Origin: a virus
Lineage: Duplodnaviria; Heunggongvirae; Uroviricota; Caudoviricetes
DNA length: 10,514 nucleotides
Direction: 5' to 3' (one strand)
IMG/VR virus record: IMGVR_UViG_2698536533_000007
Shown: positions 1 to 3,000 of the stretch, in pieces
Layout: every line of letters starts with the position of its first letter
Numbering within the stretch: the stretch's first letter is position 1
Program-made: the position numbers

Positions 1-3000
1 CACCTGAGCAGGTGATTCGACACAGCATCGCCAATGAATACCAGGGCTTGTTCGCGCCGAAAGGTGTTCGACCTGAGACGTTACTCCGACAGGTTAACAC
101 CGTCTCGTTACCGGATAGTGCGATCCCGCCAGGCTTCAGGGGGTAACTGACCATGAAAAATATTGCGACAGGCGACGTTCTTGAACGTATCCGCAGACTG
201 GCCCCGTCACATGTAACCGCGCCATTCAAGACGGTAGCGGAGTGGCGCGAGTGGGCAGCGATACGCGTTGAGTCAGGCGAAATCCATCGCTGATGAACTG
301 ATGACCGGGTGTACAAATTTTGCGTTCAGCGGAAAACCTGGTACCGGGAAGAACCACTTAGCGGCAGCTATCGGGAATCGCCTGCTGAAAGACGGTCAGA
401 CAGTGATTGTGGTTACCGTGGCTGATGTTATGAGCGCCCTGCACGCCAGCTATGACGACGGGCAGTCAGGCGAAAAATTTTTGCGGGAGCTGTGCGAAGT
501 GGATCTGCTGGTTCTTGATGAAATTGGCATTCAGCGCGAGACGAAAAACGAGCAGGTGGTGCTGCACCAGATTGTTGATCGCCGGACAGCGTCGATGCGC
601 AGCGTGGGGATGCTGACAAACCTGAACTATGAGGTGATGAAAACATTGCTCGGCGAGCGGGTGATGGATCGCATGGTCATGAACGGCGGGCGCTGGGTGA
701 ATTTTAACTGGGAGAGCTGGCGTCCGAATGTTAGCCATTCGAGGGTTGTTAAGTAGTTTCAGGAGGATTTATGGCGAAACCTTTTACTCCCGAACAGCGG
801 GAAGAACTGAAGACGCGAATTGTGGAACTCGTGCATCAGGACGGTCGGGTCACGATTCGGCAGTTGTCAGATGAAACAGGTATCAGTCGTGCGTCTGTCG
901 GTCGCTTATGCATAGAACTGGTCGCAAGTGGTGATGTATATAATTCTGGCTACGGCTTATTCCCGTCTGAACAGGCTCGCAAGGACTGGCAAAGCGCCCG
1001 CAAAAAACTCTCGAGAGTAAAGGTGAGGAAACCGGTTGTTGTTGATCCGGACCTTATCTGGTCATTACCTGACGGAGAAATACGCCGCTACGACAGGCGC
1101 CTGAATATAATCTGTCGCGAGTGCCGGAAGAGCGAAGCTATGCAGCGTGTACTGGCTTTCTATCAGGGTAATTTTCAGGAGGCGATACTGTGAATGAAAT
1201 TAGCTATCAGGCTTCAATTACCGCTGGCATTCGCATCAAAGGAGAGGAGCATGGAAATAAAACCAGAAGATGAGTTAAGCAATATCGTTTTATTTCCGGT
1301 AAAAGAGGATGACCCTCGTAATCAGGTTAATTTTCTTTATGAGCCATCGGAAAGACCATATTGCCATCACGCCTCTGTACGGGTTGACGAAAAAGAGCGT
1401 CAGGTCCGCTGTAAAATCTGCGGTGCGGTTGTGGAGCCGTTTGACTGGATGCTCTCTGTGGCAAAAAGAGAAACCAGACTGGCAGATGATGTAAGGCTAT
1501 TGCGCCAGGAGGAACAGGAAAGGCGGAGAAATATAGAAAAGCTGATACAGATTGAGCGTAACGCGAAAGCGCGGATACGCAGGGCGACAAAATCCAGAAC
1601 TGAATAATTAAATTTAGCACTGTTAAAAATTTAATCCTTAACCGGAGGGATTTCTGCACCCTCAAATCATCAGGAGACCACCCGAAAGGGCGGGGAGCAG
1701 TCACACATCTGTTTCCGATAGCCCCGTTCTAATGCTACACTCTTTGATATTTTTATGACCCCAATAAACATATTTATGACAGTTGCTGATTTCAAACGGC
1801 CCAAATTGGAGCTCCCAAACGGGGCAAACAAACTACTACTGCACTCTTGCTGTGCTCCATGTTCCGGTGAGGTGATGGAGGCGCTTCAGGCCTCGGGAAT
1901 CGACTACACCATCTTTTTCTACAACCCGAACATTCATCCTCAGAAAGAGTATTTAATTCGTAAGGATGAGAATATTCGCTTTGCTGAACAACACGGCGTG
2001 CCGTTTATTGATGCTGATTACGACACAGACAACTGGTTTGAACGAGCCAAAGGAATGGAATGGGAGCCCGAACGAGGGATCCGTTGCACCATGTGTTTTG
2101 ACATGCGTTTTGAGCGGACAGCGCTGTACGCCGCTGAAAATGGTTTCAGTGTGATCAGCAGTTCACTGGGCATTTCACGCTGGAAAAATATGCAGCAGGT
2201 TAACGACTGTGGGCGGCGAGCCGTCGCGCATTATCCGGGCATGGTGTACTGGGATTATAACTGGCGCAAGCAGGGCGGCTCGTCCCGTATGATTGAAATC
2301 AGCAAGCGCGAAAAATTCTATCAGCAGGAATATTGTGGCTGTGTGTATTCTCTGCGCGATACCAATCTACACCGCAAATCTCAGGGACGCCCTCTTATCA
2401 AAATTGGTCAACTCCACTACGGTAAAGAAGAGAAGGAGTGATTTTATGGGGCACCTTTCTGATNNNNNNNNNNNNNNNNNNNNNNNNNNNNNNNNNNNNN
2501 NNNNNNNNNNNNNNNNNNNNNNNNNNNNNNNNNNNNNNNNNNNNNNNNNNNNNNNNNNNNNNNNNNNNNNNNNNNNNNNNNNNNNNNNNNNNNNNNNNNN
2601 NNNNNNNNNNNNNNNNNNNNNNNNNNNNNNNNNNNNNNNNNNNNNNNNNNNNNNNNNNNNNNNNNNNNNNNNNNNNNNNNNNNNNNNNNNNNNNNNNNNN
2701 NNNNNNNNNNNNNNNNNNNNNNNNNNNNNNNNNNNNNNNNNTTGCTGTTCATGATATGAATGCAGGGTTTGATGAAAAGATTTTGTTCCCCTCATCAGTT
2801 GAAAGCACTGCGGGTTAAGGAGTAACACATGACCACTATTACCAAAGAACGTATTGAATTGTTCATTAAAAACCCGCTTGAAAACGGGCTTACCCGTGGT
2901 GAACAAATGGAACTGGCACGGATTGCGCTGGCATCGCTGGAAGCAGAGCCGGTTGTGTTCTGGTTTGAAAAATATCAAGAAGGGGCTACGGCATGACGAC

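Follow-up and report, generated by a model that had tools for sequence, protein, structure and literature searches.

The queH gene of a prophage-derived stretch of DNA, IMG/VR virus record IMGVR_UViG_2698536533_000007 (Caudoviricetes), probably encodes a functional QueH-type tRNA epoxyqueuosine(34) reductase. A phage would have captured it as cargo, and it would give lysogens a vitamin B12-independent way to complete queuosine (Q) in their tRNA. The stretch is 10,514 nucleotides (nt) long and is called the window below; positions are counted from its first letter. Judged by homology, QueH would be an iron-sulfur (Fe-S) enzyme with no need for cobalamin, and would reduce the epoxide of epoxyqueuosine (oQ34) to the cyclopentene of queuosine on tRNA-Asp, -Asn, -His and -Tyr. 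An earlier note, made from the sequence of the window alone, had assigned the gene to the QueH (DUF208) family and suggested that it could alter host tRNA modification or take part in a phage 7-deazaguanine pathway. The family assignment is confirmed below, and an effect on host tRNA modification is, we infer, the best reading of the gene's role.

The features of the gene and its immediate flanks are these, with residues numbered on the 228-amino-acid (aa) form unless stated otherwise:
1705 to 1754, plus strand: conserved upstream block, the left edge of homology in all prophage alleles, with a promoter-like TTCCGA-17 nt-TACACT element.
1755 to 1775, plus strand: seven in-frame codons before Met8, probably 5' leader rather than coding.
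1776 to 2441, plus strand: queH coding sequence (CDS), 221 aa and stop, placed on the Pfam QueH match, PDB 7lc5, the model fold, RefSeq and the substitution pattern.
1848 to 1865, plus strand: CCAPC motif with Cys32, Cys33 and Cys36 (Cys25, Cys26 and Cys29 of the 221-aa form), aligned with C9, C10 and D13 of Thermotoga maritima QueH.
2082 to 2099, plus strand: RCTMCF motif with Cys111 and Cys114, aligned with C87 and C90.
2331 to 2342, plus strand: YCGC motif with Cys194 and Cys196, aligned with C169 and C171.
2464 to 2741, no strand: masked stretch of 278 nt, read as the mosaic junction at which the QueH cassette meets a module of small Ea22-like open reading frames (ORFs), not as a partner gene.

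The uninterrupted 228-aa ORF at 1755-2441 on the plus strand matches the Pfam profile of QueH (DUF208, COG1636), PF02677, with a score of 220.6 bits (cutoff 23.5) and an E value of 1.9e-65, and the match covers positions 1-174 of the 175 in the profile. This is far beyond chance. All four motifs quoted in the earlier note are present in the ORF: HSCCAPCS at residues 30-37, FFYNPNIHP at 54-62, RCTMCF at 110-115 and YCGC at 193-196. A sequence search of the PDB returned T. maritima QueH, 7LC5, at 5e-22, and the ORF matches PHROG 3217, a family of no assigned function. The ORF is a genuine, intact member of the QueH family. The exact 221-aa protein is public as [quoted passage not shown], found on at least 1000 contigs (RefSeq WP_012421537.1), and the 228-aa form is AAZ87471.1 of Shigella sonnei Ss046. 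Since RefSeq already names the gene QueH, the identification is not new: the identity of the gene is settled and in public annotation, and the gene is not a new feature.

QueH proteins bind a [4Fe-4S] cluster with a further iron next to it, and the candidate metal-ligand residues of the family are conserved in the window protein. A search of 1.84 billion representative proteins gave 2516 clusters at E <= 1e-10, from which 58 diverse members spanning the domain were aligned with the window protein and with T. maritima QueH. Seven columns, C25, C26, C29, C104, C107, C187 and C189 in the 221-aa numbering, hold Cys in 57, 57, 56, 58, 58, 48 and 52 of the 58 members, and the Arg of the RCTMCF motif is as invariant (58 of 58) as its two Cys. 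The window protein has Cys in all seven, so the loss of conserved Cys ligands, which the earlier note had named as grounds for giving up the assignment, is not seen. For two of the aligned positions, C9 and D13 of T. maritima, mutants (C9S and D13N) have been deposited. As Cys is the norm in the Cys29 column, the window protein is typical there, and it is the Asp13 of T. maritima that is the outlier.

The predicted structure tells the same family. An AlphaFold2 model of the window protein, built with 19 homologues, has a predicted local distance difference test score (pLDDT) of 77.7 and a predicted template modelling score (pTM) of 0.79. Its best five PDB matches are all T. maritima QueH entries, 7lc5 and 7lc7 among them, with target-normalised TM scores of 0.82-0.84 and root-mean-square deviations of 2.6-3.0 A. 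The next matches, at much lower TM scores, are the PP-loop folds of TtuA, ThiI, LarE and QueC type. In the model, then, the window protein has the adenine-nucleotide-alpha-hydrolase-like fold of the solved QueH.

Where the protein begins was decided by comparing five prophage alleles. Over the first seven codons, 1 to 5 of the 21 nt differ between non-identical alleles (4 to 5 in most pairs, about 20%) and residues are altered, whereas the rest of the gene differs by 3-5% between alleles, nearly all of it synonymous. When the Erwinia orthologue is aligned, its ATG falls on window position 1776, and RefSeq and the chromosomal orthologues likewise start at this second ATG. Because of the variable leader codons, the RefSeq start and the orthologue starts, the CDS was placed at 1776-2441; the true start is probably Met8, giving a protein of 221 aa.

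Upstream of this start, a TACACT box resembling a -10 element lies at 1736-1741, 34 nt before the ATG. The same box stands 31 nt before the start in the Erwinia chromosomal orthologue L012 and 37 nt before it in a further chromosomal orthologue, L014, and Erwinia also has the “ataaacRtattt-ATGAC” leader of the window gene. The box and leader common to the chromosomal orthologues suggest that a native promoter came along with queH; the TTCCGA-17 nt-TACACT element is accordingly named here as a candidate promoter. An Rfam search for a riboswitch or regulatory RNA upstream of queH returned only sok and STnc100, both elsewhere in the window. As a separate observation, a hairpin with a GNRA loop, CCACCC-GAAA-GGGCGG, lies in the intergenic DNA upstream of the cassette at 1678-1697. 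It is perfect in two related prophages (L001 and L010) and is present in only a subset of the QueH-bearing prophages. As it lacks a following T-run, it does not qualify as a canonical terminator.

The gene looks like a captured host gene, because its nearest relatives are chromosomal queH genes of other Enterobacterales. Among the matches listed, which span the closest 80 species, the nearest relatives outside Escherichia and Shigella are in Scandinavium (92% aa identity), Kluyvera (91%) and Enterobacter (89-90%), followed at 79-87% by Symbiopectobacterium, Pantoea, Erwinia, Photorhabdus and Providencia. The copies inspected in Photorhabdus, Providencia, Erwinia, Scandinavium, Kluyvera and Enterobacter sit among ordinary chromosomal genes, beside benE, tmcA/purC/bamC, purL/glrK/glnB/glyA or icd/mnmA, and the inspected chromosomal loci have no matches to the phage proteins of the window. 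Of the copies inspected, only that of Escherichia albertii is prophage-like. In Enterobacter sp. ECC-175 (L100, 2677-5669), icd is followed downstream, at a distance of about 1 kb, by the chromosomal queH. Since icd is a classic lambdoid attachment site, the proximity may be relevant to the way in which a phage first came by the gene. Further afield, the protein is 75-80% identical to proteins of Sphingomonas, Stenotrophomonas, Pseudomonas and Paracoccus (L137-L174), and such identity across distant Proteobacteria suggests either extreme constraint or frequent horizontal transfer.

The gene has also been kept. Among the prophage alleles, the ratio of non-synonymous to synonymous substitution rates (dN/dS) is 0.02-0.056, with dS up to 0.27 and with 12-31 synonymous against 1-6 non-synonymous differences; in the comparison with Providencia, dS was saturated. 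These values indicate sustained purifying selection on queH after its capture.

Of 5426 complete E. coli genomes, 995 (18%) contain the queH CDS, and 985 of these hold at least 80% of its length; among the matches listed, every copy is annotated as QueH and is an intact, normal CDS. Among the carriers are EC958, of sequence type 131 (ST131), one O157:H7 strain and a derivative of E. coli B. The majority allele in E. coli belongs to the classic Rac prophage (L009), where the order is ttcA, intR, recET, kilR, sieB, ydaTUV, DUF1627, DUF977, QueH, hokD and, further on, trkG. Other copies are found in Qin-like prophages and in a prophage integrated beside ybhA. The earlier note had called a prophage-borne QueH unexpected in E. 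coli, which overstates the matter for a gene that 18% of complete genomes carry, classic Rac included, and that RefSeq names. Among viruses, 189 IMG/VR contigs carry queH. So does one isolated phage, the temperate coliphage HannyBb, whose copy is 96.5% identical and has no annotation beyond hypothetical. The remaining tblastn hits in the phage collection fall in faecal contigs that lack annotation or in oversized records whose viral origin is doubtful.

The queG sequence of K-12 is present in all 5426 genomes, which bears out the premise that E. coli uses QueG. At this step QueH is therefore always a second, non-homologous and redundant enzyme. K-12, on which the definition of both queG and the B12 dependence is based, is itself without queH. 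The K-12 Rac prophage (L176) runs collinear with the intact Rac (L009) apart from a deletion of 6.8 kb (L009 13192-19973), which removes DUF977, queH, hokD, a doc-family toxin gene, genes of the nin/Q region, two tRNA genes and most of the lysis cassette, and which fuses ydaW to the rzpR pseudogene. A tblastn search with QueH found no match in the K-12 Rac region. This loss may explain the view of E. coli as an organism with QueG only.

E. coli does not synthesise B12 de novo, and its universal QueG is cobalamin-dependent, so the most likely benefit of a QueH is one felt when B12 is scarce. In the mechanism that we favour, a lambdoid phage captured queH, probably with its own promoter, from an enterobacterial chromosome; the gene would since have travelled as a cassette of about 1705-2463 between the replication genes and the sok/hok and nin genes of Rac-like and Qin-like prophages; and lysogens, possibly along with the phage during its growth, would complete Q-tRNA when B12 runs short. 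As to cofactors, QueG is a cobalamin/[4Fe-4S] enzyme (PMC4646009, PMC5175355), and QueH is regarded as a cobamide-independent alternative to it (PMC6461909). Citing Frey 1988, PMC4646009 and PMC5175355 state that a cobamide dependence of oQ reduction was shown in E. coli and Salmonella. Complementation of a queG mutant has been reported for other members of the QueH family, according to the citation of Zallot 2017 in PMC5372724. A pairing of QueG with QueH also occurs in Streptococcus pyogenes and S. suis, and in Staphylococcus aureus, where it occurs too, such redundancy has been taken to reflect a response to the availability of cofactors (PMC13443448).

Several points weigh against this account. 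The gut, the main habitat of E. coli, is generally rich in corrinoids, and B12 limitation may be rare there. QueH needs Fe-S assembly and is expected to be sensitive to oxygen and to the supply of iron, which means that it is not superior to QueG in every respect. The window protein matches no NCBIfam model. As for expression, a scan for consensus promoters and terminators found nothing convincing on the plus strand near queH and did not call the TACACT element, which is weak, with 7 of 12 consensus matches; and neither candidate start, 1755 or 1776, is preceded by a Shine-Dalgarno sequence. Activity of the enzyme in vivo, expression from its own promoter in a lysogen and a selective advantage of B12 independence are each proposed here.

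Three other explanations were weighed. The gene could be a neutral passenger, brought in by illegitimate recombination and contributing nothing to host or phage. Its full redundancy with the universal queG fits this idea, as does its dispensability, for K-12 and prophages of the TUM10008 type do without queH and the latter have other small genes in its slot; no strong promoter or ribosome-binding site was found either. A passenger would nevertheless be hard to reconcile with a dN/dS of 0.02-0.06 maintained in the prophage lineage over dS of up to 0.27, with the intact frame and normal CDS in every listed genome, with the retention of all catalytic Cys, or with the recurrence of the same cassette in prophages at different integration sites (ttcA for Rac, ybhA and others). 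We consider it improbable. A role that serves the phage itself is also unlikely. By this account queH would be transcribed with the early-right genes on induction and would complete Q on host tRNAs, which would tune the decoding of NAU and NAC codons in phage late genes or change the susceptibility of tRNA to those anticodon nucleases that act on Q-tRNAs. The gene does lie on the same strand inside the early-right transcription unit, the scan detected no intrinsic terminator between it and the replication genes, HannyBb is a viable phage that carries it, and Q is reported to modulate NAU decoding (PMC10570037). Yet oQ and Q are not known to differ in decoding, and the tRNA pool could hardly be remodelled within a short lytic cycle. 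Moreover, the tRNAs encoded by the prophages (Met/Ile-CAU, Arg, Thr and Gly) are not Q-tRNAs, QueH matches no defence-system model (PADLOC, at E <= 0.01), and a candidate promoter common to the chromosomal orthologues suggests autonomous expression.

The third explanation is the phage 7-deazaguanine pathway raised in the earlier note, in which QueH would mature a Q-like base for DNA modification together with an adjacent transglycosylase. Phages do encode preQ0-pathway genes and DpdA for the modification of their DNA (PMC6884629), and a masked stretch lies directly downstream of queH. However, the same 2019 survey found no deoxyqueuosine (dQ) in phage DNA (PMC6884629), and annotation shows neither tgt/dpdA nor queA, queC/D/E or folE in those prophages and the phage with QueH that were examined (L001, L002, L009 and L010 included). 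Pfam and PHROG scans of the ORFs in the window likewise show no preQ0-synthesis genes and no queA, and no tgt/dpdA gene is seen in the window. The identity of 79-92% to chromosomal queH genes, which presumably encode housekeeping tRNA enzymes, argues against a change of substrate. Directly after queH, 79 of the 80 viral contigs and four annotated loci have sok/hok, and the mask itself spans 278 nt and has at its right end the tail of a common 87-aa hypothetical gene. This explanation is accordingly very improbable, and a captured QueH acting on host tRNA remains the favoured reading.

The masked stretch had been described as a masked gene directly downstream, with a tgt/dpdA-like gene as a possible partner. 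Masked DNA does begin there, but the gene does not stand: an ORF that begins at 2446 (MGHLSD) ends after six codons in L001, and 278 nt is too short for a tgt/dpdA-like gene, so the mask would hide a recombination junction rather than a partner. On the left, window 253-2463 is 99.6% identical to L001. On the right, window 2742-3785 is about 99% identical to two other loci (L003 and L004), and the flank of the mask is the tail of the 87-aa hypothetical gene, which has no Pfam family and ends at the equivalent of window 2818 in L004. No locus joins QueH to the segment from 2742 onward, in 5426 complete E. coli genomes or 80 IMG/VR loci, and the content of the mask was therefore deduced from each flank separately. 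Between queH and sok/hok, window 2464-3435 (about 970 nt) holds small Ea22-like ORFs: the 87-aa hypothetical gene and others of 55 aa and 114 aa. This arrangement is found in none of the same 5426 genomes and 80 loci. The DNA masked elsewhere in the window has its counterparts in DUF968, RusA, methyltransferase and tRNA genes of relatives.

Around queH, the window is a lambdoid early-right region with replication and nin genes, as the earlier note had it. The neighbouring features are:
268 to 756: DnaC/YdaV-like loader, upstream of queH.
771 to 1193: DUF977/Ren-like gene, upstream of queH.
1194 to 1607: zinc-ribbon ORF, upstream of queH.
3459 to 3784, plus strand: sok antisense RNA and hok toxin, a type I toxin-antitoxin pair (Rfam sok, 117.5 bits; Pfam HOK_GEF, 2.7e-23).
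6960 to 7781: antiterminator Q, downstream of queH.

Small Ea22-like ORFs, DUF968 and a DNA methyltransferase are also downstream. The usual site of queH is between the replication genes and sok/hok of Rac-like or Qin-like prophages; sok/hok follows it within about 25 nt in the four annotated loci (L001, L002, L009 and L010) and the 79 IMG/VR loci mentioned above. The unit common to all queH prophages is about window 1705-2463, and since the closely related prophage TUM10008 has other small genes in the slot, queH acts like an exchangeable cargo cassette. The prophage tRNA genes include none for a Q-tRNA, and on that ground a link between them and QueH was rejected.

Two further observations concern the rest of the window. 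Two ORFs of the nin region, at 4185-4236 and 5177-5230, begin with a near-identical peptide, MKIEELREIFSE(N/D)GLY, and this similarity points to a small gene that was duplicated or recombined within the region. A full-length match to the gammaproteobacterial small RNA STnc100 (Rfam RF02076, 123.6 bits, E 2e-27) lies at 9741-9930, downstream of the prophage DNA methyltransferase and of a masked tRNA region.

In the literature, no paper was found that treats a QueH carried by E. coli prophages. The 2019 survey, which covered the 7-deazaguanine genes of phages, found no QueA, QueG or QueH in any virus analysed (PMC6884629), and the QueH-bearing prophages and HannyBb counter that statement. Here a tRNA-modification enzyme under strong selection is prophage cargo and duplicates a core enzyme that uses a different, externally supplied cofactor. 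According to the textbook rule, Q synthesis in E. coli requires B12 and QueG; the rule is based on K-12, from which queH is deleted. We give an even chance to the broader proposal that E. coli and Shigella are polymorphic in the cofactor dependence of the Q pathway, such that about one strain in five would carry a B12-independent prophage QueH and keep its tRNA fully Q-modified without cobalamin, while K-12 has lost queH. If that is true, QueH would be a lysogenic-conversion gene acting on the host epitranscriptome. If QueH is active, the Q-tRNA status of some strains but not of others would depend on B12 from the environment, and conclusions from K-12 would not generalise to B strains, ST131, O157 or Shigella.

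Four known systems place the gene. T. maritima QueH, TM0731 (7LC5, 7LC7), is like the window protein in fold and in its CC...C/RCxxC/CGC set of Cys, at about 30% identity; the window copy has Cys in place of Asp13, about 20 extra C-terminal residues, and is encoded by a prophage rather than a chromosome. QueG shares the predicted reaction, from oQ34 to Q34 on tRNA, and the same genomes, yet it is non-homologous, has a reductive-dehalogenase-like fold, needs B12 (PMC4646009, PMC5175355) and is a core chromosomal gene. The chromosomal queH genes of Enterobacterales are 79-92% identical to the prophage copy over their full length and have the same start, and the Erwinia locus L012, like L014, has the TACACT box; unlike them, the prophage copy sits between replication genes and sok/hok and co-exists with queG. 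Finally, like the lambdoid “morons”, such as trkG in Rac, queH is a small self-contained cassette of host origin between phage modules, varies in its presence between related prophages and has a candidate promoter of its own, but it differs in its predicted cargo function, which is tRNA modification.

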